From positions 19,592,001 to 19,656,000 of the forward strand of contig OZ024759.1 in NCBI GenBank assembly GCA_964016885.1: a stretch of 64,000 bases of DNA, in the 5' to 3' direction. Origin of the DNA: Eledone cirrhosa. Lineage: Eukaryota. Shown here piece by piece: positions 1 to 62,051 of this stretch. Every line of letters starts with the position of its first letter. The first letter of the stretch is position 1. The translations under genes were made by a program, and so were the position numbers. The notes under the pieces were generated by a model. It was given only the letters and a program-made list of their open reading frames with translations, had not been told where the DNA came from and searched no databases.

Positions 1-3000
1 ATCACTCGGACTTCCCTTTCTCTACCGTCTGTGCAGTTGAACTCATGATCTTGAGCCCCAGGCTCAAGGCAGGGCTAGACTAATCACTCGGACTATCTCT
101 TTCTCTACCGTCTGTGCAGTTGAACTCATGATCTTGAGCCCCAGGCTCAAGGCAGGGCTAGACTAATCACTCGGACTTCCCTTTCTCTACCTTCTCTACC
201 GTCTATGCAGTTGAACTCATGATCTTGAGCCCCAGGCTCAAGGCAGGGCTAGACTAATCACTGACTATCTCTTTCTACTGTCTGCAGTTGAACTCATGAT
301 CTTGAGCCCCGGGCTCAAGGCACTCTAGGCACTCTAGCCCTGCCTTGAGCCTGGGGCTGAAGATCATGAGTTCAACTGCACAGACGGTAGAGAAAGAGAT
401 AGTCCGAGTGATTAGTCTAGCCCTGCCTTGAGCCCCTGGGGCTCAAGATCATGAGTTCAACTGCACAGACGGTAGAGAAAGGGATAGTCCGAGTGATTAG
501 TCTAGCCCTGCCTTGCTGGCTCAAGGCAGGGCTAGACTAATCACTCGGACTATCCCTTTCTCTACCGTCTGTGCAGTTGAACTCATGAGCTAGACTAATC
601 ACTCGGACTTCCCTTTCTCTACCTTCTCTACCGTCTGTGCAGTTGAAGCCCTGCCTTGAGCCCCTGGGGCTCAAGATCATGAGTTCAACTGCACAGACGG
701 TAGAGAAAGAGATAGACCGAGTGATTGGTCTAGCCCTGCCTTGCAGGCTCAAGGCAGGGCTAGACTAATCACTCGGACTCTCTTTCTCTACCGTCTGTGC
801 AGTTGGAACTCATGATCTTGAGCCCCAGGCTCAAGGCAGGGCTAGACTAATCACTCGGACTTCCCTTTCTCTACCTTCTCTACCGTCTGTGCAGTTGAAC
901 TCATGATCTTGAGCCCCAGGCTCAAGGCAGGGCTAGACTAATCACTCGGACTATCTCTTTCTCTACCGTCTGTGCAGTTGGAACTCATGATCTTGAGCCC
1001 CAGGCTCAAGGCAGGGCTAGACTAATCACTCGGACTTCCCTTTCTCTACCTTCTCTACCGTCTGTGCAGTTGAAGCCCTGCCTTGAGCCCCTGGGGCTCA
1101 AGATCATGAGTTCAACTGCACAGACGGTAGAGAAAGAGATAGACCGAGTGATTGGTCTAGCCCTGCCTTGCAGGCTCAAGGCAGGGCTAGACTAATCACT
1201 CGGACTCTCTTTCTCTACCGTCTGTGCAGTTGGAACTCATGATCTTGAGCCCCAGGCTCAAGGCAGGGCTAGACTAATCACTCGGACTTCCCTTTCTCTA
1301 CCTTCTCTACCGTCTGTGCAGTTGAACTCATGATCTTGAGCCCCAGGCTCAAGGCAGGGCTAGACTAATCACTCGGACTATCTCTTTCTCTACCGTCTGT
1401 GCAGTTGGAACTCATGATCTTGAGCCCCAGGCTCAAGGCAGGGCTAGACTAATCACTCGGACTAACTCTTTCTCTACCGTCTGTGCAGTTGAACTCATGA
1501 TCTTGAGCCCCAGGCTCAAGGCAGGGCTAGACTAATCACTCGGACTTCCCTTTCTCTACCTTCTCTACCGTCTGTGCAGTTGAACTCATGATCTTGAGCC
1601 CCAGGCTCAAGGCAGGGCTAGACTAATCACTCGGACTATCTCTTTCTCTACCGTCTGTGCAGTTTTGATTCCCAGGCTCAAGGCACTCTAGCCCTGCCTT
1701 GAGCCTGGGGCTGAAGATCATGAGTTCAACTGCACAGACGGTAGAGAAAGAGATAGTCCGAGTGATTAGTCTAGCCCTGCCTTGAGCCCCTGGGGCTGAA
1801 GATCATGAGTTCAACTGCACAGACGGTAGAGAAAGAGATAGTCCGAGTGATTGGTCTAGCCCTGCCTTGCAGGCTCAAGGCAGGGCTAGACTAATCACTC
1901 GGACTATCTCTTTCTCTACCGTCTGTGCAGTTGAACTCATGATCTTGAGCCCCAGGCTCAAGGCAGGGCTAGACTAATCACTCGGACTTCCCTTTCTCTA
2001 CCTTCTCTACCGTCTGTGCAGTTGAACTCATGATCTTGAGCCCCAGGCTCAAGGCAGGGCTAGACTAATCACTCGGACTATCTCTTTCTCTACCGTCTGT
2101 GCAGTTGGAACTCATGATCTTGAGCCCCAGGCTCAAGGCAGGGCTAGACTAATCACTCGGACTTCCCTTTCTCTACCTTCTCTACCGTCTGTGCAGTTGA
2201 ACTCATGATCTTGAGCCCCAGGCTCAAGGCAGGGCTAGACTAATCACTCGGACTATCTCTTTCTCTACCGTCTGTGCAGTTGGAACTCATGATCTTGAGC
2301 CCCAGGCTCAAGACAGGGCTAGACTAATCACTCGGACTATCTCTTTCTCTACCGTCTGTGCAGTTGAACTCATGATCTTGAGCCCCAGGCTCAAGGCAGA
2401 GCTAGACTAATCACTCGGACTTCCCTTTCTCTACCTTCTCTACCGTCTGTGCAGTTGAACTCATGATCTTGAGCCCCAGGCTCAAGGCAGGGCTAGACTA
2501 ATCACTCGGACTATCTCTTTCTCTACCGTCTGTGCAGTTTTGAGCCCCAGGCTCAAGGCACTCTAGCCCTGCCTTGAGCCTGGGGCTGAAGATCATGATT
2601 TCAACTGCAGAGACGGTAGAGAAAGAGATAGTCCGAGTGATTAGTCTAGCCCTGCCTTGAGCCCCTAGGGCTCAAGATCATGAGTTCAACTGCACAGACG
2701 GTAGAGAAAGAGATAGTCCAAGTGATTGGTCTAGCCCTGCCTTGCAGGCTCAAGGCAGGGCTAGACTAATCACTCGGACTATCTCTTTCTCTACCGTCTG
2801 TGCAGTTGGAACTCATGATCTTGAGCCCCTGGCTCAAGGCAGGGCTAGACTAATCACTCGGACTTCCCTTTCTCTACCTTCTCTACCGTCTGTGCAGTTG
2901 AACTCATGATCTTGAGCCCCAGGCTCAAGGCAGGGCTAGACTAATCACTCGGACTATCTCTTTCTCTACCGTCTGTGCAGTTGGAACTCATGATCTTGAG

Positions 3001-3686
3001 CCCCAGGCTCAAGGCAGGGCTAGACTAATCACTCGGACTATCTCTTTCTCTACCGTCTGTGCAGTTGAACTCATGATCTTGAGCCCCAGGCTCAAGGCAG
3101 GGCTAGACTAATCACTCGGACTTCCCTTTCTCTACCTTCTCTACCGTCTGTGCAGTTGAACTCATGATCTTGAGCCCCAGGCTCAAGGCAGGGCTAGACT
3201 AATCACTCGGACTATCTCTTTCTCTACCGTCTGTGCAGTTGGAACTCATGATCTTGAGCCCCAGGCTCAAGGCAGGGCTAGACTAATCACTCGGACTTCC
3301 CTTTCTCTACCTTCTCTACCGTCTGTGCAGTTGAACTCATGATCTTGAGCCCCAGGCTCAAGGCAGGGCTAGACTAATCACTCGGACTATCTCTTTCTCT
3401 ACCGTCTGTGCAGTTGGAACTCATGATCTTGAGCCCCAGGCTCAAGGCAGGGCTAGACTAATCACTCGGACTTCCCTTTCTCTACCTTCTCTACCGTCTG
3501 TGCAGTTGAACTCATGATCTTGAGCCCCAGGCTCAAGGCAGGGCTAGACTAATCACTCGGACTATCTCTTTCTCTACCGTCTGTGCAGTTGAACTCATGA
3601 TCTTGAGCCCCAGGCTCAAGGCAGGGCTAGACTAATCACTCGGACTTCCCTTTCTCTACCTTCTCTACCATCTGTGCAGTTGAACT
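1..3686. repeat. Satellite array of 82-84 bp and 91 bp monomers (about 175 bp dimer) with internal inverted blocks; runs off the left edge
   Basis: Monomer ATCACTCGGAC(TATCT/TTCC)CTTTCTCTACC(TTCTCTACC)GTCTGTGCAGTTGAACTCATGATCTTGAGCCCCAGGCTCAAGGCAGGGCTAGACTA; starts at 1, 83, 166, 257 ... 850, 941, 1025; reverse-complement blocks at about 331-515, 647-745, 1074-1172, 1688-1870 and 2562-2745. Confidence 0.97.
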
Positions 3687-4700
3687 CACTACTCACTTTC
3701 CACCCCAAGACACCACCCAGACCCAGTATCCAACTTTCCACTCCAAGACACCACCCACACCCAGTACTCAACTTTCCATCCCAAGACACCACCCACACCC
3801 AGTATACACTTTCCAGCCCAAGCCACCACCCACAATTCGGCTGCTACCCCCACTACTCACTTTCCACCCCAAGACACCACCCACACCCAGTACTCAACTT
3901 TCCACCCCAAGACACCACCCACACCCAGTACTCAACTTTCCACCCCAAGACACCACCCACACCCAGTACACTTTCCAGCCCAAGCCACCACCCACAATTC
4001 GGCTGCTACCCCCACTACTCACTTTCCACCCCAAGACACCACCCACACCCAGTACTCAACTTTCCACCCCAAGACACCACCCACACCCATACTCAACTTT
4101 CCACTCCAAGACACCACCCACTCCCAGTACACTTTCCACCCCAAGCCACCACCCACAATTCAGCTGCTACTACACCCACCCACCTGCCACCACCCACCTT
4201 CCACCACCTTCCACCACCCACACCCATATTCACTTGCCACCACCCACACCCAGTACTCACTTTCACCCCAAGACACCACCCACACCCAGTACACACTTTC
4301 CACTCCAAACCACCACCCACAATTCAGCTGCTACTCCAAGCCACCACCCACACCCACTACTCACCTGCCACCCTGTACTACCCACACTGTCAATTAGGAA
4401 TGCACAGCTGGACTCTTCCATCTCGGGGAGGGGTGGGTGGCAGGTGAGTAGACTAGTCTACTCACCTGCCACCCACCCACTAGTCTACTCACCTGCCACC
4501 CCACCCACTAGTCTACTCACCTACCACCCCACCCCATGCCATAACCAACCACAACTCCACCCACCCACACCCACCCTCAATTCCTCCACCTCAACCACCT
4601 GTAACATTAGGAATGATACAGCTGGACCCTCCATCTCGGCTCCCAGCCATCCAACTACTTACCTGCCACCCCACCCAACCCCACCCCACCAACTACCAGT
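3687..4700. repeat. C/A-rich minisatellite (about 37 bp CCAAGACACCACCCACACCCAGTACTCAACTTTCCAC units) decaying rightwards
   Basis: Direct reading of repeated units; the overlapping ORFs are P/T/H low-complexity. Confidence 0.9.
4431..4478. repeat. Perfect 48 bp palindrome
   Basis: GGGTGGGTGGCAGGTGAGTAGACT|AGTCTACTCACCTGCCACCCACCC. Confidence 0.95.
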
Positions 4701-6238: not shown

Positions 6239-6329
6239 TGGATATATATATGTATATATATATATTATACACAGATATAACATATATATATCATACTAGC
6301 AGCTTTACCCGGCGTTGCTCAGGGTTTGA

Positions 6330-6580
6330 AATTGGTACCACGACATCCAGTCCAAATAAATGAGAAAATGAGATCGAGATTGTGTAGGTGTCATGACAAA
6401 AAAAAAGAGTCCACGTTGTCCACACTAAATGTGGTTGGTGTTAGGAAGGGCATCCAGCCGTAGAAGACCTGCTAGATAGTCCTATATGAGCGAGACACTG
6501 TCACCCGACCAACCTTGCCTCAAATTGGGACAACTTCCGTCTAACACATGCTAGCATGGAAGATGGACGTTAAACGATAT
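6330..6580 (+). mobile_element. SINE 3' portion with Meta-domain-like central motif and RTE-type tail
   Basis: GGTGTTAGGAAGGGCATCCAGCCGTAGAA ... CATGCTAGCATGGAAGATGGACGTTAAACGAT; second copy at 62755-63042. Confidence 0.7.
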
Positions 6581-6603: not shown

Positions 6604-6943
6604 TCTTTATATATATAAAAGCGAGGATGTGTGTGTGTCTTGTGTACAACTTAGAATACCTAAGGCTTTTACAATTACCAACCGAATTTGACCAAATTTT
6701 CTGTGCACGTTGCACAGGTCGCTAAGATGGTCATCACAAACATTTTTCCAATTGACCCACGAGCAATAAAAAATCGATATCAAAATTATCGGTAGCAAAA
6801 TTGATGTAAGGGGATAACCAACTTTATTGACAATCCTTATAAAGAGACTGCTTAAGTTGGAGACAAATAATGTTCTTTTACTTCCTAGCTGTATATTCTT
6901 AGCATAATTTCAAACCCCGAGCAACGCCGGGTAAATCTGCTAG
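6604..6943 (+). mobile_element. Non-autonomous Helitron-like element
   Basis: 5' TC...TATATATAAAAG start; 3' GC hairpin CCCGAGCAACGCCGGG then CTAG|T; a reverse-complement copy of the 3' end lies at 6296-6333. Confidence 0.65.
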
Positions 6944-7002
6944 TATGATATATATATATGTTATATCTGTGTGTATAAAATATATATATATATATATATG
7001 TG

Positions 7003-12587: not shown

Positions 12588-12799
12588 TAGATATATATAT
12601 ATGCATATATAGATATATATATATATACATATATAGATATATATACATATATATATATATAGTGAAAAATTGAACGGGAACAAAACAGAGAGGCAGTACG
12701 AACAAAGGTTTATTAGTTTCACGCTCTTGAGAGTGAGAAATATATAGATAGATATATATAGATATAGATATATATAGATATAGATATATATAGATATAG

Positions 12800-26230: not shown

Positions 26231-26425
26231 CTGTGTAGGGTTTTGGGTGTGGTGTGTGTGCTCTGACAAACGGTACAAACACGTATATATATATAATCCA
26301 GATATATATGATATATATATATATGTAGGAGGTGAGTTTTATTGTAGTACAAAACTATAAAACTATATGTTGATTTAAAACTGCACTATTTACAAGTGTA
26401 TTTTAACCTTCATATCATGTCTCCC

Positions 26426-26496
26426 TATTTTATCTGATGAAAACGCAAATGTTATTGCATGATGATATTTGTTTTTGAAATGCGCATAATAAAATA
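26426..26496 (+). ncRNA. Type I hammerhead ribozyme, minimal stem III, palindromic loop TGCGCA
   Basis: TATTTTAT-CTGATGA-aaacGCAAATGTTATT gcat GATGATATTTGTtttt-GAAA-TGCGCA-TA|ATAAAATA. Confidence 0.85.
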
Positions 26497-26578
26497 CATG
26501 GAACTCTTTTAACCATCTTTTGATCTTATGTATTATGATATATATATATATATATTTGGATTTATGTATATGCATGCA

Positions 26579-26633
<55 letters not shown>

Positions 26634-26811
26634 TTGCATATATATACATATATATATATATGCATGCATATATATATATATATATATAAATATATTATTT
26701 TGATCATGCCTTTATTTTTAATTTAATTTGCACCGTTTCCTCTCACCCCCTTTTTGCTATATGTCTCTCCACCACTCCCCTACACACCCTTTGAACTCTC
26801 TTTCCACACAC

Positions 26812-26850
26812 TTTTCACCTGAAGAAGGGCTTATGCCCGAAACGTCGTTC
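26812..26850 (+). ncRNA. Variant ultra-minimal hammerhead-like core (A-GGGC family)
   Basis: CTGAAGA-A-GGGC-TTAT-GCCC-GAAA-CG-TC; stem I only about 2 bp. Confidence 0.5.
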
Positions 26851-26933
26851 CCCACCACCACTCCACTCTCAAGAGCGTGAAACTAATAAACCTTTGTTCG
26901 TACTGTCTCTCTGTTTTGTTCCCGTTCAATTTT

Positions 26934-26992
<59 letters not shown>

Positions 26993-27124
26993 AGAAGTTA
27001 TATTTAATTTGTTGGAATTCCGACAAACATAAATGTTTATAACTGATATAGAGCACTCAACAGTGTACTGGAGTAAATATTCAAAGATATTAATAAATGG
27101 AAACCATATTTATGAAAACATATT

Positions 27125-27188
27125 TATTTTATTATATATATTTCAAGAGCAACCAACCCACCTTGGTGCGCTTTCATCAGATAAAATA
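27125..27188 (-). ncRNA. Type I hammerhead ribozyme (loop III TATATA)
   Basis: rc: TATTTTAT-CTGATGA-AAGCGCACCAA ggtggg TTGGTTGCTCTT-GAAA-TATATA-TA|ATAAAATA. Confidence 0.85.
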
Positions 27189-27315
27189 CAAAATTTATTT
27201 TATAAATAATGACATACCCATATATATATATTTACACTTTGTACTGCCTCTTCGCTTCATTTTTGTTTTCTGTACAAAGTGTAAATAATAGGTTCACGCT
27301 TGGGCGTAGGGTAGG

Positions 27316-27355
27316 GTGCGACGTTTCGGGCATAAGCCCTTCATCAGGAGAAAAG
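27316..27355 (-). ncRNA. Variant hammerhead-like core (A-GGGC family)
   Basis: rc: CTGATGA-A-GGGC-TTAT-GCCC-GAAA-CG-TC. Confidence 0.5.
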
Positions 27356-27436
27356 TGGGCAGGAAAAGAGTTCCGAGGGTGTGAAGGGGAGTGGTGGAAA
27401 GACATTAAAAAGTGGGGAGGAAAATACGATACATAC

Positions 27437-27563
27437 ATTGTTGTGCTCCATTATATCTTTGCGCCTGACAAGAGAGGCCGGAGGTCGGTTTTAGAATGGC
27501 TCTTCCACTATACTGTGTTGGCCATAACTGGACCCCTGCGAAATCTAAGGAGGTCACGCATAC
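27437..27563 (-). CDS. Candidate coding exon VCVTSLDFAGVQLWPTQYSGRAILKPTSGLSCQAQRYNGAQQ (phase 0-1)
   Basis: Unique sequence, CCCTTAACAG acceptor, T|GTATGT donor, open frame; 3' end identical to that of the exon at 35944-35989. Confidence 0.5.
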
Positions 27564-28399: not shown

Positions 28400-28447
<48 letters not shown>

Positions 28448-28494
28448 AAAGTTCTAATTAAATTGTTGGGATACAACAAGCAAATATTTTTATA

Positions 28495-28550
28495 AATGCG
28501 ACCATTTCTGTTGGAAGCTCCCGGGAGCTTCCAACAGAAATGGTCGCATT
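28495..28550. repeat. Perfect 56 bp palindrome at the 5' inversion junction of a hammerhead-bearing element
   Basis: AATGCGACCATTTCTGTTGGAAGCTCCC|GGGAGCTTCCAACAGAAATGGTCGCATT. Confidence 0.95.
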
Positions 28551-28595
28551 CGTTAAGGGTATGTCAATATTTATTTATAAAACTGATCTATATTA

Positions 28596-28660
28596 TATTT
28601 TATCTGATGAAAGCGCACCATAATTTGACTTGGTGTCCTTGAAATATGTATAATGAAATA
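28596..28660 (+). ncRNA. Type I hammerhead ribozyme (loop III TATGTA)
   Basis: TATTTTAT-CTGATGA-AAGCGCACCA taatttgact TGGTGTCCTT-GAAA-TATGTA-TA|ATGAAATA. Confidence 0.85.
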
Positions 28661-28843
28661 AATATGGTTTTATAAATATAGTTTCCATTTGTTAATATAT
28701 CGTATATATATATGGGGAGTGTGTGTGTAGTAAGATGTGATACCCTTCCCCTGTCGTATTTACACACAGTATGCAGAATACTGCTCTCCTCACTCCTTCA
28801 CTACCCAGGTACTTCTCCATCAGCCCATTGTTGATTATTATAC

Positions 28844-29797
28844 GTGGATTGGCAGTATCGGTAGAGGGTCTGACGCCATGCTTTGCAGCAAAGAGTTACA
28901 GCCCTTTACGGTCTGAGTTCAAATCTCGCCGAGGTTAACTTTGCCTTTCATCCTTACGGGGTCGATAAAATAAAGTACCAGTAATACACTGGGATAATTG
29001 CTGGCCTTGTGCCAAAAGTAGAAACAATTATTATTATAGATTGACAGTATCGGTAGAGCGCCGGACGCCATGCTTTGCGGCACAGAGTTATGTCCCTTTA
29101 CGTTCTGAGTTTAAATCCCGCTGAGGTTAACTTTGCCTTTCATCCTTACGGGGTCGATAAAATAAAGTACCAGTAATGTACTAGGTAATTGCTGGCTTTG
29201 TGCCAAAAGTAGAAACAATTATTATTATAGATTGACAGTATCGGTAGAGCGCCGGACGCCATGCTTTGCGGCACAGAGTTATGTCCCTTTACGTTCTGAG
29301 TTTAAATCCCGCTGAGGTTAACTTTGCCTTTCATTCTTACGGGGTCGATAAAATAAAGTACCAGTAATGTACTAGGTAATTGCTGGCTTTGTGCCAAAAG
29401 TAGAAACAATTATTATTATAGATTGACAGTATCGGTAGAGCGCCGGACGCCATGCTTTGCGGCACAGAGTTATGTCCCTTTACGTTCTGAGTTTAAATCC
29501 CGCTGAGGTTAACTTTGCCTTTCATTCTTACGGGGTCGATAAAATAAAGTACCAGTAATGTACTAGGTAATTGCTGGCTTTGTGCCAAAAGTAGAAACAA
29601 TTATTATTATAGATTGACAGTATCGGTAGAGCGCCGGACGCCATGCTTTGCGGCACAGAGTTATGTCCCTTTACGTTCTGAGTTTAAATCCCGCTGAGGT
29701 TAACTTTGCCTTTCATCCTTACGGGGTCGATAAAATAAAGCACCAGTAATACACTGGGATAATTGCTGGCCTTGGGCCAAAAGTAGAAACAATTATT
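28844..29797 (+). mobile_element. Head-to-tail array of five SINE family 1 copies (191 bp period)
   Basis: TTGACAG starts at 29041, 29232, 29423 and 29614, near-identical; the first copy at 28844 is more diverged. Confidence 0.95.
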
Positions 29798-29852
29798 ATA
29801 CACACACTATACACACATGCAATTCATCAGTCCAGTGTTTATATATACATAC

Positions 29853-34814: not shown

Positions 34815-34992
34815 GATACGCGACATACCCTGAGATGCTAAATGGTTAAGATTTAATCAAGGTAGTATAATATTCCCCCCCCCCCACATATATATATATA
34901 TGGGGGGGGGGGGTAATATTAAATATCCACTTACAAGTATGAAAATAGCTGAATGTAAAGTAACTACTATATTACAGAATTACTTTATAAAT

Positions 34993-35357: not shown

Positions 35358-35542
35358 AACGGAGGAAATGTGGTAAGGAACCAGGTGGACCATCACGCAC
35401 CAAAGTACTCAATACTTCGGGTAGTAGAGTGGATAATAGGAACAAGTAAGACCCCAACGGCTGAGCTCAAGCCGTTTCGACGGCTAATTCTGGACTGAAT
35501 TAGCCGTCGAAACGGCTTGAGCTCAGCCGTCGGGGTCTTGTT

Positions 35543-35548
<6 letters not shown>
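35358..35548. mobile_element. (TA)n-inserted element with fold-back; carries a 3' half-hammerhead GAAA-CGGCT-TGAGCTC-AGCCG-TC
   Basis: Inverted arms 35448-35490 and 35497-35539; family also at 43285-43506, 51813-51925 and 53890-54040. Confidence 0.7.
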
Positions 35549-36847: not shown

Positions 36848-38047
36848 GATATTCTTGTTGCTAAACACTCTTCGTCTATGTAACATGTAAATATATTTCC
36901 GTCTAATGCCGTATATTTTATCGTCGTCTTTTTAGATTTTAGGGTTTAAAAGTTCGTTATGGAACTCGTCCGACCTTCTGGCATCGTTTAAAGCAACACT
37001 GCTTCTTTTAATTATTACCGTTTTTTTCTTCTTCTTCTTGTTCTTCTTCTTCATCTTCATCTTCTTGTGACCGACTCCCGCTCGACTCTTTGTTTGAAAT
37101 TTTGTCTTGTAACGTTCGTTCGTCACCTCATATTTTCTTTGTAACTCTCTCTCTCTCTCTCTCTCTCTATGGCATTGTATGTATGTATGTATATATGTAT
37201 ATGTATGTATGTCTCTCTCTCTGCCTGTCTGTCGATATGGCATGGTATATATATATATATACATATATATATATGTCTCGCTCTCTCTGCCTGTCTGTCT
37301 ATATGGCATGGTATGTCCATATAGACAGACAGGCAGAGAGAACGAGACATATATATATATATATATATATATATGTCTAGCTCTCTCTGCCTGTCTGTCT
37401 ATATGGCATGGTATGTATATACATGTGTATATGTGTCTGTCTATCTATGACATGAAGAAACATATCTATCTATAACATGACATCGTCTGTCTGTGTGGCT
37501 CTGTGTTTGGCATGCTATGTATGTATGTCATATGTATATACGACATTCGAGGTTAACTTTGCCTTTCATCCTTACGGGGTCGATAAAATAAAGTACCAGT
37601 AATGTACTGGTTAATTTCTGGCCTTGTGCCAAAAAGTAGAAACAATTATATATATATATGTGTGTAGATCCATCTGTTCTGCATGACATGGTATGTATGC
37701 ATCTATTAATGTGTGTTTGTGCATGTATGCCTCTGTATATATGTATATATATATATATATATATATAATGTGTGTGTTTGTGCATATATGCCTGTGTGTA
37801 TATATATATATGCCTGTGTGTATATATATATATGCCTGTGTGTATTTTATCGTAACCAAAAAGCGACATCAGTAACTCGGGGGCTTGGCATTTCGTCGTT
37901 AAGGGCAATCAGTTTGATAAGTCAAGTCCCCTTAACCGGCATGGCTTTGTATGTAATTAAGGAGTTCACCTTGCAACCACATGGCTCTGGTTTGGGTCCC
38001 CACTGCGCCAAACCCTTGCTAGCAGCGAACGCGAAGGTTAAAACGGC

Positions 38048-39544: not shown

Positions 39545-39732
39545 AGGCTTCGTATTTTTAGGTTGCTTGACGGTGAATATGTCCCTATGTAAAGATGCTT
39601 GTGAAGCGTTCTTTTTAGAGTACTTTACTGGGATCTACCCGTCAGTGATTTTGTATACGATGTTTTCTTTCTCACTCTCTCTCTCTCTATATATAGTGAA
39701 AAATTGAACGGGAACAAAACAGAGAGGCAGTA

Positions 39733-39796
<64 letters not shown>

Positions 39797-40001
39797 CTTT
39801 CCCCTGTGTTGTGTACTTGTCTCACTCACTTTACGCGTTTTAATTGTCCTAATAACTTATTTTAGTTATTATTGCACCAACGTGAGGTATATGATTTTTA
39901 ATGCAATGAAATACCTATGACCGTTGACAAATCACTGATGAGGGACTCATTTTATAACATGTTATCCATGTGCAACCATGCAGTATTCTTCTCCCCATAT
40001 T

Positions 40002-40056
<55 letters not shown>

Positions 40057-40142
40057 GGAAACATTTGAACAGGGACAAAACAGAGAGGCAGTACAACAAA
40101 TGTTTATTAATTTCACGCTCTGGAGAGTGGGGTGTAGGTGGG

Positions 40143-40180
40143 GGACGACGTTTCGGGCATAAGCCCTTCCTCAGGTGAGA
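40143..40180 (-). ncRNA. Variant hammerhead-like core (A-GGGC family)
   Basis: rc: CTGAGGA-A-GGGC-TTAT-GCCC-GAAA-CG-TC. Confidence 0.5.
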
Positions 40181-40394
40181 AGTGTGTGGGAACAGAGTTC
40201 AAAGGGTGTGTAAGGGAGTGGTGGAGAGACATATAGCGAAAGGAAACGGTGCGAATGAAAAAATAACAAGTAAAAATAAAAATAAAGCATGATACAAGGA
40301 ATGAGATAAATTTAAAAATAAAGGCATGATCAAAATAAACTGAAATTAAAAGTGAGTTGGAATTTGGCCGGAGTATCGCTACTAGCTTTCTCCC

Positions 40395-40470
<76 letters not shown>

Positions 40471-40508
40471 ATTAAATAAATGGAAAACTATATTTATAAA
40501 ACCATATT

Positions 40509-40574
40509 TATTTCATTATATATATTTCGGGGATATCATATTAACAATATGCTATGCCTTCATCAGACAAAATA
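40509..40574 (-). ncRNA. Type I hammerhead ribozyme
   Basis: Reverse complement of 40747-40812. Confidence 0.85.
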
Positions 40575-40746
40575 CAATATAAACAGTTTTATAGATAAAT
40601 ATATTCGACATACCGTAATAAACATCAACTTCATTTGAAGAGGTTCACTCTCGCAGAGAAGTTGATGTTTATTACGGTATGTCGTAATAAAGTTGATGTT
40701 TATTACGGTATGTCGAATATATTTATCTATAAAACTGTTTATATTG

Positions 40747-40812
40747 TATTTTGTCTGATGAAGGCATAGCATATTGTTAATATGATATCCCCGAAATATA
40801 TATAATGAAATA
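40747..40812 (+). ncRNA. Type I hammerhead ribozyme
   Basis: TATTTTGT-CTGATGA-aGGCATAGCATATT gtt AATATGATATCCcc-GAAA-TATATA-TA|ATGAAATA. Confidence 0.85.
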
Positions 40813-40940
40813 AATATGGTTTTATAAATATAGTTTTCCATTTATTTAATATTGTAAATATACTCCAAGTATTTGTCGAGTGCTTTTATATCAGTTATAA
40901 ATATTTACTAGTTGTAACCCAACAATTTTAAATATAACTT

Positions 40941-40975
<35 letters not shown>

Positions 40976-41227
40976 GGGAGAAAGCTAGCAGCGATACTCC
41001 GGCCAAATCCCAACTCACTCAACAAACATTAGGAAATACCTGAGTATATTCCTAGTTAAACGTTCGGGGTGCTAACTATATTGTATTGTGTGGAGAATTG
41101 GCTGTATCATTTCATATGAGATTTTGAGCTGACTTTTGGGAGGCTCCTATACAGCTCCTATATATTTATGCAAAGATGGTCAAAATTGGGTCTTGACACC
41201 TTAGTTCTGTATATGAACATTAATTAA

Positions 41228-41410
41228 GATTGGCAGTATCGGTAGAGGGTCGGACGCCATGCTTTCCAGCATAGTTACGTCCCTTTATGATCTGAGTTCA
41301 AATCCCGCCGAGGTTGACTTTGCCTTTCATCCTTACGGGGGTCGATAAAATAAAGTACCAGTAATGCATTGGGTAATTGCTGGCCTTGTGCCTAAAGTAG
41401 AAACAATTAA
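41228..41410 (+). mobile_element. SINE family 1
   Basis: Consensus match. Confidence 0.9.
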
Positions 41411-43284: not shown

Positions 43285-43504
43285 TAACGAAGGAAATGTG
43301 GTAAGGAACCAGGTGGACCATAACGCACCAAAGTACTCAATACTTAGGGTAGTAGAGTGGGTAATAGGAACAAGTAAGACCCCGACGGCTGAGCTCAAGC
43401 CGTTTCGACGGCTAATTCTGTACAATTCTCTCTCAACTCGTCTATGCAGTACAGAATTAGCGGTCGAAACGGCTTGAGCTCAGCCGTCGGGTCTTACTTG
43501 TTCC

Positions 43505-47505: not shown

Positions 47506-47575
47506 TATTCCATTACCAAAGGTTTCAGCAAACAAGACAATCCTTACAGAAACGTCCGGCTCGTTCATCAGATTA
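47506..47575 (-). pseudogene. Degenerate hammerhead of the 42745 family
   Basis: rc: CTGATGA...GAAA-CCTTTGG-TA|ATGGAATA; downstream flank homologous to 42810-42870; stem I truncated by (TA)n. Confidence 0.55.
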
Positions 47576-47663
47576 TATATATATATTTGTATTTTTTTTG
47601 CGAAGTTTTTGATATGAAATCGTGTGTCGAAACAAATATTGTTATGTTGGGGAGGGTCATATT

Positions 47664-48061
47664 GATCTGCTCAAGCTCCCTGTGTGTGTATATAAATATA
47701 TATATTATTATACTTGGGGAGGGTCATATTGTTGTAATAATATTGCCAGAAATAACAACAGAACACACTCACTGGCGTAGACATACAATACAACAGGAGG
47801 AACATAATAGTATCACTGATGATGTTGCAGATGTGCAACGAAAGAACTTTGTTAGACTATATATATGTGTTTATATCTGTATATTTGACCGTTGGTCAGT
47901 CAATGAATTAACTATGGAGATAGAAAAGATACAGAAGCGAAAGCCAACCAAACAGTGAGTGTGTTCTGATATTATTTCTGGCAATATTATTACAATATGA
48001 CCCTCCCCAAGTATAATAATATATCTATTTATATACACACACAGGGAGCTTGAGTTGATCA
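47664..48061. repeat. Inverted repeat (about 110 bp arms), same family as 61499-61972
   Basis: Arms at about 47664-47773 and 47953-48061, with GGGAGGGTCATATTG motif. Confidence 0.75.
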
Positions 48062-48129
48062 ATAACGAAATGCACGTCACCAGTCAATAAACGTAATGAA
48101 GGCTTAACAAAAAGACCTTGTATTATTAA

Positions 48130-51746: not shown

Positions 51747-51991
51747 TATGTATATATATATGTGTGTGTGTGTATAGGTATGTGTATATATGAATATATA
51801 TATATATATATATAACAAAGAAAGTGTGGTAAGATACTAGGTGGACCATAACGTACCAGAGTACTAGATACTTGGGGTTGTAGAGTGGGTAACAGGAAAA
51901 TAGTCAGGACCCCGACGGTAGAGCTTCCAACAGTAATGGTTGCATTGTTTAAGGATATGTCAATATTTATTTATAAAACTGCTCTATATTA

Positions 51992-52056
51992 TATTTTATC
52001 TGATGAAAGCACACCATAATTTAACTTGGTGTCCTTGAAATATGTATAATGAAATA
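51992..52056 (+). ncRNA. Type I hammerhead ribozyme (loop III TATGTA)
   Basis: TATTTTAT-CTGATGA-AAGCACACCA taatttaact TGGTGTCCTT-GAAA-TATGTA-TA|ATGAAATA. Confidence 0.85.
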
Positions 52057-52184
52057 AATATGGTTTTATAAATATAGTTTCCATTTGTTAATATATCGTA
52101 TTTTTACTCCAATAATTTGTTGAGTGCTTTATATCAGTTATAAAAATATTTGCTTGTTGTATCCCAACAATTTAAATAGAACTT

Positions 52185-52241
<57 letters not shown>

Positions 52242-55345: not shown

Positions 55346-55474
55346 GGAAAGTTATATTTAAATTGTTGGGTTACAACTAGTAAATATTTATAACTGATAT
55401 AAAAGCACTCAACAAGTATTTGGAGTATATTTACGATATTAAATAAATGGAAACTATATTTATAAAACCATATT

Positions 55475-55540
55475 TATTTCATTATATATATTTCAGGGAT
55501 ATCATATTAACAATATGTTATGCCTTCTTCAGACAAAATA
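55475..55540 (-). ncRNA. Type I hammerhead ribozyme (CUGAAGA)
   Basis: Reverse complement of 55660-55725. Confidence 0.85.
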
Positions 55541-55659
55541 CAATATAGACAGTTTTATAGATAAATAGATTTGACATACCGTTCAACATCGACTTGTATT
55601 TGAAAAAGTTGATTTGAACGGTATGTCAAATCTATTTATCTATAAAACTGTCTATATTG

Positions 55660-55725
55660 TATTTTGTCTGAAGAAGGCATAACATATTGTTAATATGATA
55701 TCCCTGAAATATATATAATGAAATA
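55660..55725 (+). ncRNA. Type I hammerhead ribozyme (CUGAAGA)
   Basis: TATTTTGT-CTGAAGA-AGGCATAACATATT gtt AATATGATATCCCT-GAAA-TATATA-TA|ATGAAATA. Confidence 0.85.
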
Positions 55726-55766
55726 AATATGGTTTTATAAATATAGTTTCCATTTATTTAATATCG

Positions 55767-55798
<32 letters not shown>

Positions 55799-61498: not shown

Positions 61499-61506
<8 letters not shown>

Positions 61507-61972
61507 ATACTTTGGGAGGGTCATGTTGCCAATAAGAAACACACGCACCAGTTGCTTTCACTTCAATTTATTATATATTTATAAATTTCTGGTTGGTTGG
61601 TTGGTCCCACAACCAGATAGTTGTTTATATATAGTCATAGTCCTTTCGTCACACACTCTGTGACCTCTTCAGTGACTGGGGATTCCTTTCTTTGTTTCTG
61701 TGCCTCTCCTTTGTTCTGTCCTACGCCAGAGAAACAAAATGGCGTAGGACAGAACAAAGGAGAGGCACAGAAACAAAGAAAGTAATCCCCAGTCACTGAA
61801 GAGGTCAGAGTGTGTGACGAAAGAACTATGACTATATATAAACTATCTGGTTGTGGGACCAACCAACCAACCAGAAATTTATAAATTTATAAATATATAA
61901 TAAATTGAAGTGAAAGCAACTGGTGCGTGTGTTTCTTATTGGCAACATGACCCTCCCAAAGTATAACAATAT
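61499..61972. repeat. About 230 bp near-perfect inverted repeat inserted in (TA)n
   Basis: Arms 61499-61728 and 61740-61972, 11 nt spacer. Confidence 0.92.
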
Positions 61973-62051
61973 CGGTTTCAACACACGATTTCAGATAAAG
62001 AATCTTGCTAAACAAATTCAGAAACGAAATATATATATATATATCTCATTA

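Follow-up and report, generated by a model that had tools for sequence, protein, structure and literature searches.

The plan described for insertions of Penelope-like elements (PLEs) comprises a 5'-truncated copy that lies inverted at the 5' end and, at one end, a tail (PMC8557442; PMC3846280; PMC8969392), and palindromes have been described at the 5' ends of pLTRs (PMC3846280). The purified PLE protein PAc cuts and extends both strands of the target, and its RT starts at two internal sites which bound the tail; the protein favours AT-rich DNA and is predicted to form a dimer, and its insertion in vitro did not depend on hammerhead cleavage (PMC11167929). The production of siRNA from inverted Penelope copies has also been described (PMC3681739).

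The locus analyzed here was compared with these insertions. It lies in a window of 64,000 nucleotides, the whole stretch of Eledone cirrhosa DNA that was analyzed (contig OZ024759.1, positions 19,592,001 to 19,656,000), which is AT-rich, microsatellite-dense eukaryotic DNA. The inner unit of the locus (Table 1) consists of two short 3' ends of one high-copy hammerhead-bearing family, designated family A, arranged head to head with a (TA)n run on either side, and is likely a dead 5'-truncated PLE insertion derived from two separately primed reverse transcripts. It displays a head-to-head 5'-truncated inversion, a one-sided tail, a type I hammerhead in the pLTR and an AT-rich, microsatellite target, and the original prediction, a Penelope-like insertion in which the 5' pLTR segment is inverted, agrees with the published plan (PMC8557442; PMC3846280). 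Both ends of the unit are situated inside (TA)n, where a target-site duplication is unreadable. A direct (tandem) pLTR, which is a trait of full-length copies and not of truncated ends, was not found, the direct duplication being just 26 nt. The plan of the focal unit is one already described for PLEs, and the locus is likely a truncated transposon remnant.

Table 1. Features of the focal locus and head-to-head units identified in the window
Feature	Position	Strand	Remarks
Family B, second hammerhead-bearing repeat	40055..40350	-	core 40174; 83% to 26681-26935
Outer pair, left copy	40351..40397	.	45/47 against right copy; directly adjoins 5' side of family B
(TA)n target run	40398..40464	.	7-nt interruption at ~40432-40438
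Left arm, family A 3' end	40465..40658	-	stops at short end (40465); includes 40632-40658
Type I hammerhead motif, left arm	40509..40574	-	core starts 40566; predicted cut after 40517
Extra 5' element sequence of left arm, 27 nt	40632..40658		upstream element sequence
26-nt duplicate of right-arm start and 5-nt linker	40659..40689	+
Right arm, family A 3' end, portion common to left arm	40690..40856	+	167/167
Type I hammerhead motif, right arm	40747..40812	+	core 40755-40761; predicted cut after 40804
Tail, 87 nt, right arm only	40857..40943	+	ends at long end
(TA)n target run	40944..40972	.
Outer pair, right copy	40973..41019	.	followed by unrelated mosaic sequence, not family B
Head-to-head unit, family A	40465-40943		focal
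Head-to-head unit, family A	55346-55768
Head-to-head unit, family A	28446-28704		internal deletion in one arm
Head-to-head unit, family E	61502-62028		different hammerhead family, hammerhead in both arms
Head-to-head unit, family F	43287-43504		cut off within probable hammerhead
Head-to-head unit, family F	35359-35546		cut off within probable hammerhead

The two arms of the inner unit, which had been predicted to form an inverted repeat of 167 bp, are perfect reverse complements over all 167 nt (40465-40631 against 40690-40856), and the same pair, when run into the TA flank, extends to 177 nt at 99%. The piece of the arm end thought to be duplicated in the spacer, originally estimated at roughly 27 nt, was found to be an exact repeat of 26 nt (40659-40684, identical to 40690-40715), beside which a perfect 9-bp local hairpin is formed between 40668-40676 and 40683-40691. 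The first reading had missed the 87-nt family tail which carries the right arm to 40943, the upstream element sequence of the left arm (40632-40658) and the recurrences within the window. Each focal arm therefore has element sequence that is absent from the other, and a simple fold-back copy cannot explain the unit.

A hammerhead had been predicted in each 167-nt arm, and both were recovered with a descriptor, which identified 11 cores in the window against none in each of 20 block-wise shuffles; with a looser pattern four further cores, belonging to other families, were found in the window. The left-arm hammerhead is the mirror image of that in the right arm. In the motif, stem I measures 8 bp, stem II is long and imperfect, and stem III, of 2 bp, is contained in a self-complementary 8-mer (40796-40803); in the right arm GAAA is located at 40793-40796. 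It matches the metazoan PLE minimal type in its conserved core, in the extra A (40762) which follows the first conserved box after A9, in the G10.1-C11.1 pair (40763/40792) and in the palindromic loop 3; the closing pair of stem II is A-U instead of G-C in five of the six family A copies. Rfam yielded nothing at gathering score in the whole window and, at E<=10, no hammerhead family over 40300-41100. The 23 Rfam matches obtained at E<=10, all far below gathering, were rejected as hairpin or TA-repeat noise. Because Rfam was silent, the hammerhead call rests on the descriptor and on the six-copy alignment. In the latter, stem pairing was held in 92% of 114 cells, compared to 37-54% in slid controls, while two-sided changes were present in 3 of 19 pairs among these six related copies, a count reached by 284 of 500 shuffles. 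Pairing across the six copies is supportive, rather than strong, backing for the hammerhead reading, and the covariation is weak.

None of the 217 frames scanned in the window reached any Pfam cut-off, and no RT or GIY-YIG frame was found; the scanned frames were drawn from 250 listed frames, the other 33 being satellite-derived or overlapping. Membership of the PLEs therefore rests on architecture, and the absence of coding sequence is expected for 5'-truncated ends. Searches for longer copies of family A gave no matches in metagenome contigs and none in viral contigs.

Family A is a dispersed repeat, with more copies at approximately 27.0, 28.6, 34.2, 52.0, 54.9 and 55.3-55.8 kb. Alignment of ten pieces revealed two fixed 3' ends, about 87 nt apart, with four pieces stopping at the short end and six at the long end; TA repeats follow each of them (in one case CA and then TA). 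The short end of the focal unit is also present in the 55k, 28k and 54.9k copies, and its long end in the 55k, 52k, 34k, 27k and 28k copies. Solo ends, which have no partner arm, were found at 34k, 27k and 54.9k.

All six same-family head-to-head units (Table 1) carry one short and one tailed end with TA repeats beyond each end, a result with a chance of 1 in 64 if the ends were independent at 50:50. The tails of the five intact units measure 87, 86, 59, 80 and 78 nt. Comparison of the focal and 55k units showed 8 differing internal positions in approximately 152. Since every one of the 8 is found in both arms of its unit, the inversion either has been made anew at each insertion, from one source sequence, or has been homogenised later, unit by unit. 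The arms of the family E unit have diverged (220/235 columns), and the 28k unit possesses a perfect 28-bp palindromic centre (28495-28550). Spacers in the five non-focal units are 0-25 nt long, and the argument from private 5' sequence is clear in only one of the six units, the focal one. At 51815-52187 a tailed end of family F (minus strand, 83% to 43287-43395) meets a tailed end of family A (plus strand) with an overlap of 5 nt, giving the only two-ended unit with two tails. Judged from its sequence, this is likely a two-family chimera resulting from a two-template event, the alternative being adjacent insertions with a deletion.

Within a subfamily, independent arms were observed to start at nearly equal 5' positions (40659/40690; 55588/55607; 28525/51921), which suggests that synthesis favours this stopping point or that the RNA itself begins there. 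The region 26400-27450 holds four hammerhead-bearing pieces from three families with (TA)n between them, including two family B-like copies placed face to face (85%). Nested inverted repeats related to family E ends surround a hammerhead-like core (47816) at 47560-48100.

Public sequencing reads were also consulted. Among 23 runs, three from a single sample share about half of the words of 40055-41230, and four runs (X1, X4, X5 and X21) were aligned to 40632-40943. Matches were found in 2,927 X1, 322 X4 and 10 X5 contigs and in 24,279 X21 reads, from which it follows that family A is abundant and high-copy. A loose end carried by 7,788 X21 reads had as its consensus the short end followed by TA repeats, and seven X1 contigs terminated in the long end, again with TA repeats behind it. 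Upstream of 40686, eight X1 and four X4 contigs carry a sequence agreeing with reverse-complemented 40632-40658 at 23 of its 27 positions, so that 40632-40658 is native element sequence running in the left-arm direction. A single X1 contig, of depth 13, connects 40656 with 40730; its short side is just 25 nt, and it represents either another head-to-head junction or an allele with a deletion. None of the four runs showed the exact focal junction (depth 0 at 40665-40675), a gap which in itself proves nothing but offers no confirmation. Opposite-strand joints in X21, a RAD library, were represented by 14 and 15 reads with 2-3 starts and were too weak to use.

Formation of the inner unit can be pictured as follows. 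The element enzyme would cut both strands of a (TA)n run, and each free end would prime a cDNA, starting at the tail site in one case and at the short site in the other, with the same RNA probably serving both. The two cDNAs would stop after about 200-280 nt, and their ends would be joined at the centre, where a snap-back slip may have produced the 26-nt duplication; the two hammerheads would be passengers of the pLTR. Snap-back synthesis in polymerase theta end joining would be expected to leave such a footprint, a local hairpin beside a duplication. In the twin priming of L1, cDNA is likewise primed from both ends of the target and the resulting pieces become linked at the centre, but the L1 pieces cover different parts of the RNA, whereas the focal pieces overlap almost fully and start at two fixed sites.

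Two separately primed cDNAs provide the better fit because each focal arm has private element sequence, and a joint between families F and A, as at 51815-52187, is the expected outcome if the ends are primed independently. The template switching during target-primed integration that had originally been suggested does not hold in the form of one cDNA folding back on itself, given the 27 nt of extra 5' sequence on the short arm and the 87-nt tail on the other, but it does fit the small 26-nt duplication. The focal unit's asymmetry, together with the chimera of two families, speaks for dual priming and against fold-back. A more specific version, proposed tentatively, is that one enzyme dimer primes both cut ends from two fixed start sites of one RNA; same-family units would then always be short plus tailed, and a rare event involving two RNAs would give the two-tailed chimera at 51815-52187. 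Were this true, the dual-site reading would link two-site initiation in vitro to the inverted pLTR in genomes and would count against self-priming; the mode of PLE inversion could be counted in a genome where such units are dense. The value of the locus lies in its evidence on how PLEs make inverted ends. A search by title and opening of the abstract, mostly in literature outside subscription, found no published twin-priming account of PLE inversions.

The inverted arrangement could also have arisen by self-priming, in which the strand folds at the point of 5' truncation and copies itself (or an antisense RNA primes its own copying), with one arm afterwards cut back by the endonuclease as far as the short end. 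This origin has been proposed for head-to-head PLE junctions with palindromes (PMC3846280), with the tail as a product of EN resolution (PMC8557442), and would suit the perfect palindrome at the centre of the 28k unit as well as the identity of arms within a unit, which later hairpin correction could also give. It is nevertheless unlikely, since in the focal unit the 5' extension belongs to the short arm and the tail to its partner, so that neither arm can template the other, and the likely two-family unit cannot be a self-copy. Transposition of a pre-formed non-autonomous fold-back element, either MITE-like or a fixed composite moving whole, is very unlikely. The focal and 55k units are nearly equal in size and both of their arms start near the same 5' position, which speaks for such an element, but their centres differ, and the other junction (40656 to 40730) is found in X1. 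In place of the symmetric TIRs and fixed structure of a MITE or fold-back DNA transposon, asymmetric ends, variable centres and the solo ends at 34k, 27k and 54.9k were observed. An assembly or library chimera, the artefact which the original prediction had envisaged raw reads might expose, was judged more doubtful again. Perfect arms and an exact junction absent from all four runs would be compatible with it, but in a fold-back read the tail and the flank should reappear as mirror images, and the left arm instead stops at a site fixed in the family; moreover, sister units (family E, for example) have diverged arms and the outer arms differ at two sites.

The least probable explanation is a regulatory hairpin under selection, acting as a ribozyme off switch or as a host source of siRNA or ADAR substrate. 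For a transcript of either strand a long hairpin is predicted at -274 kcal/mol, compared to -171 kcal/mol with the hammerhead kept folded, and the earlier claim that dsRNA would sequester the ribozyme is therefore sound as a folding prediction. Whichever strand is read, the antisense arm comes before the sense hammerhead, with the hairpin winning by approximately 100 kcal/mol, and siRNAs matching inverted Penelope regions have been reported in flies (PMC3681739). The built-in off switch, however, was not supported, since there is no ORF to regulate and the lone motif is already predicted to be misfolded: it prefers a wrong fold by 6-8 kcal/mol and would adopt its active secondary structure for some 1e-6 to 1e-4 of the time, tertiary contacts not being counted in this estimate. 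Each transcript would contain one sense hammerhead and thus no tandem dimer in cis, a lone minimal PLE hammerhead has been reported as lacking detectable cleavage in vitro (PMC4209133), and the same plan arises in family F with the hammerhead cut in half. If transcribed in host introns or UTRs, such hairpins would be sources of dsRNA, which is a generic and published consequence.

An outer inverted pair beyond the (TA)n flanks had also been predicted and was located, with adjusted boundaries, on both sides of the inner unit (Table 1). Its arms carry 2 mismatches in 47 positions versus 0 in 167 for the inner arms (Fisher p=0.047), and the outer pair is probably separate from the inner event and older. 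The 47-nt sequence has no third match elsewhere in the window, and the outer-pair pattern gave no matches in metagenome contigs. On a likeness of motif, these 47 nt might encode the end of a GIY-YIG domain. A search with the 95-aa frame at 40116-40400 gave one candidate and no match at E<=0.01 among proteins of 52-167 aa. The adjoining family B copy at 40055-40350 is, on its sequence, likely an older PLE end; relatives of this family are present at 27302-27405, 12664-12735 and 39688-39735.

For the outer pair, an older fold-back that took the family A insertion at its centre is likely. It may be what remains of the palindromic middle of an older family B unit, of which the other arm has been lost and into whose TA centre family A was inserted; this reconstruction is offered with reserve. 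Somewhat less likely, the flank was copied by snap-back across (TA)n, for which 37317-37406 offers a parallel. Interpretation of the pair as transposon TIRs was ruled against by the absence of a partner end in the window. Inverted flanks directly surrounding (TA)n with no inner insertion were noted at 37317-37406 and 34868-34921, of which 37317-37406 is the only clear second case, the controls for a general excess of such flanks being swamped by compound microsatellites. The same 7-nt T-rich interruption precedes TA runs at 40432-40438 and at approximately 39999-40005; its sequence is similar to the terminal bases of the family B end, and it could represent a minimal fragment.

Other repeats were observed in the window. 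A 42-nt inverted pair (95%) at 6292-6333 and 6906-6947, whose TA-rich flanks are also mirrored, looks like the end of a DNA element and may be similar to Helentron-type ends. An abundant SINE-like repeat, which may resemble an octopus SINE, occurs at 41228-41409 and at about 20 other places, with five tandem copies at 28847-29799. Positions 1-3688 are occupied by a satellite of 83-91 nt with internal strand switches at 333-515, 1687-1869 and 2562-2744.

Among known systems, non-LTR retrozymes are alike in being non-coding and PLE-derived and in carrying a type I hammerhead, but are described as tandem head-to-tail units (bioRxiv 2026.07.22.740005), whereas the focal pair is head to head. No tandem head-to-tail hammerhead array was detected over the focal locus and, retrozymes being tandem, the focal unit is not a non-LTR retrozyme. 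The Naiad and Chlamys PLEs are described as having no canonical hammerhead (PMC8557442), unlike the focal unit. The dual minimal hammerheads of Schistosoma mansoni, which lie on opposite strands 100-700 bp apart and were attributed to truncated PLEs (Cervera and de la Pena 2014; PMC4209133), are similar in arrangement and also share the extra nucleotide after A9 and the palindromic loop 3. With its 8-bp stem I and 2-bp stem III, family A differs from these and is nearer to the variant whose helix III is small and palindromic.

In the in vitro system of PAc (Poseidon from Anolis carolinensis), two fixed 3' ends likewise bound the tail, both strands are cut and extended, and AT-rich sites are used, although an inverted unit is not known to have been derived from its two start sites (PMC11167929). 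The tail is longer here, and no start codon for a long frame is evident in the family A hammerhead. Compared with the EN+ PLEs, the focal unit has no ORF between its ends, and the tails, 59-87 nt here, exceed the published 30-40 nt; it shares with the complex insertions of Penelope/Poseidon, of Neptune and of Nematis the head-to-head 3' ends, the one-ended tail, the pLTR hammerhead and the AT-rich target (PMC8557442; PMC3846280; PMC8969392).
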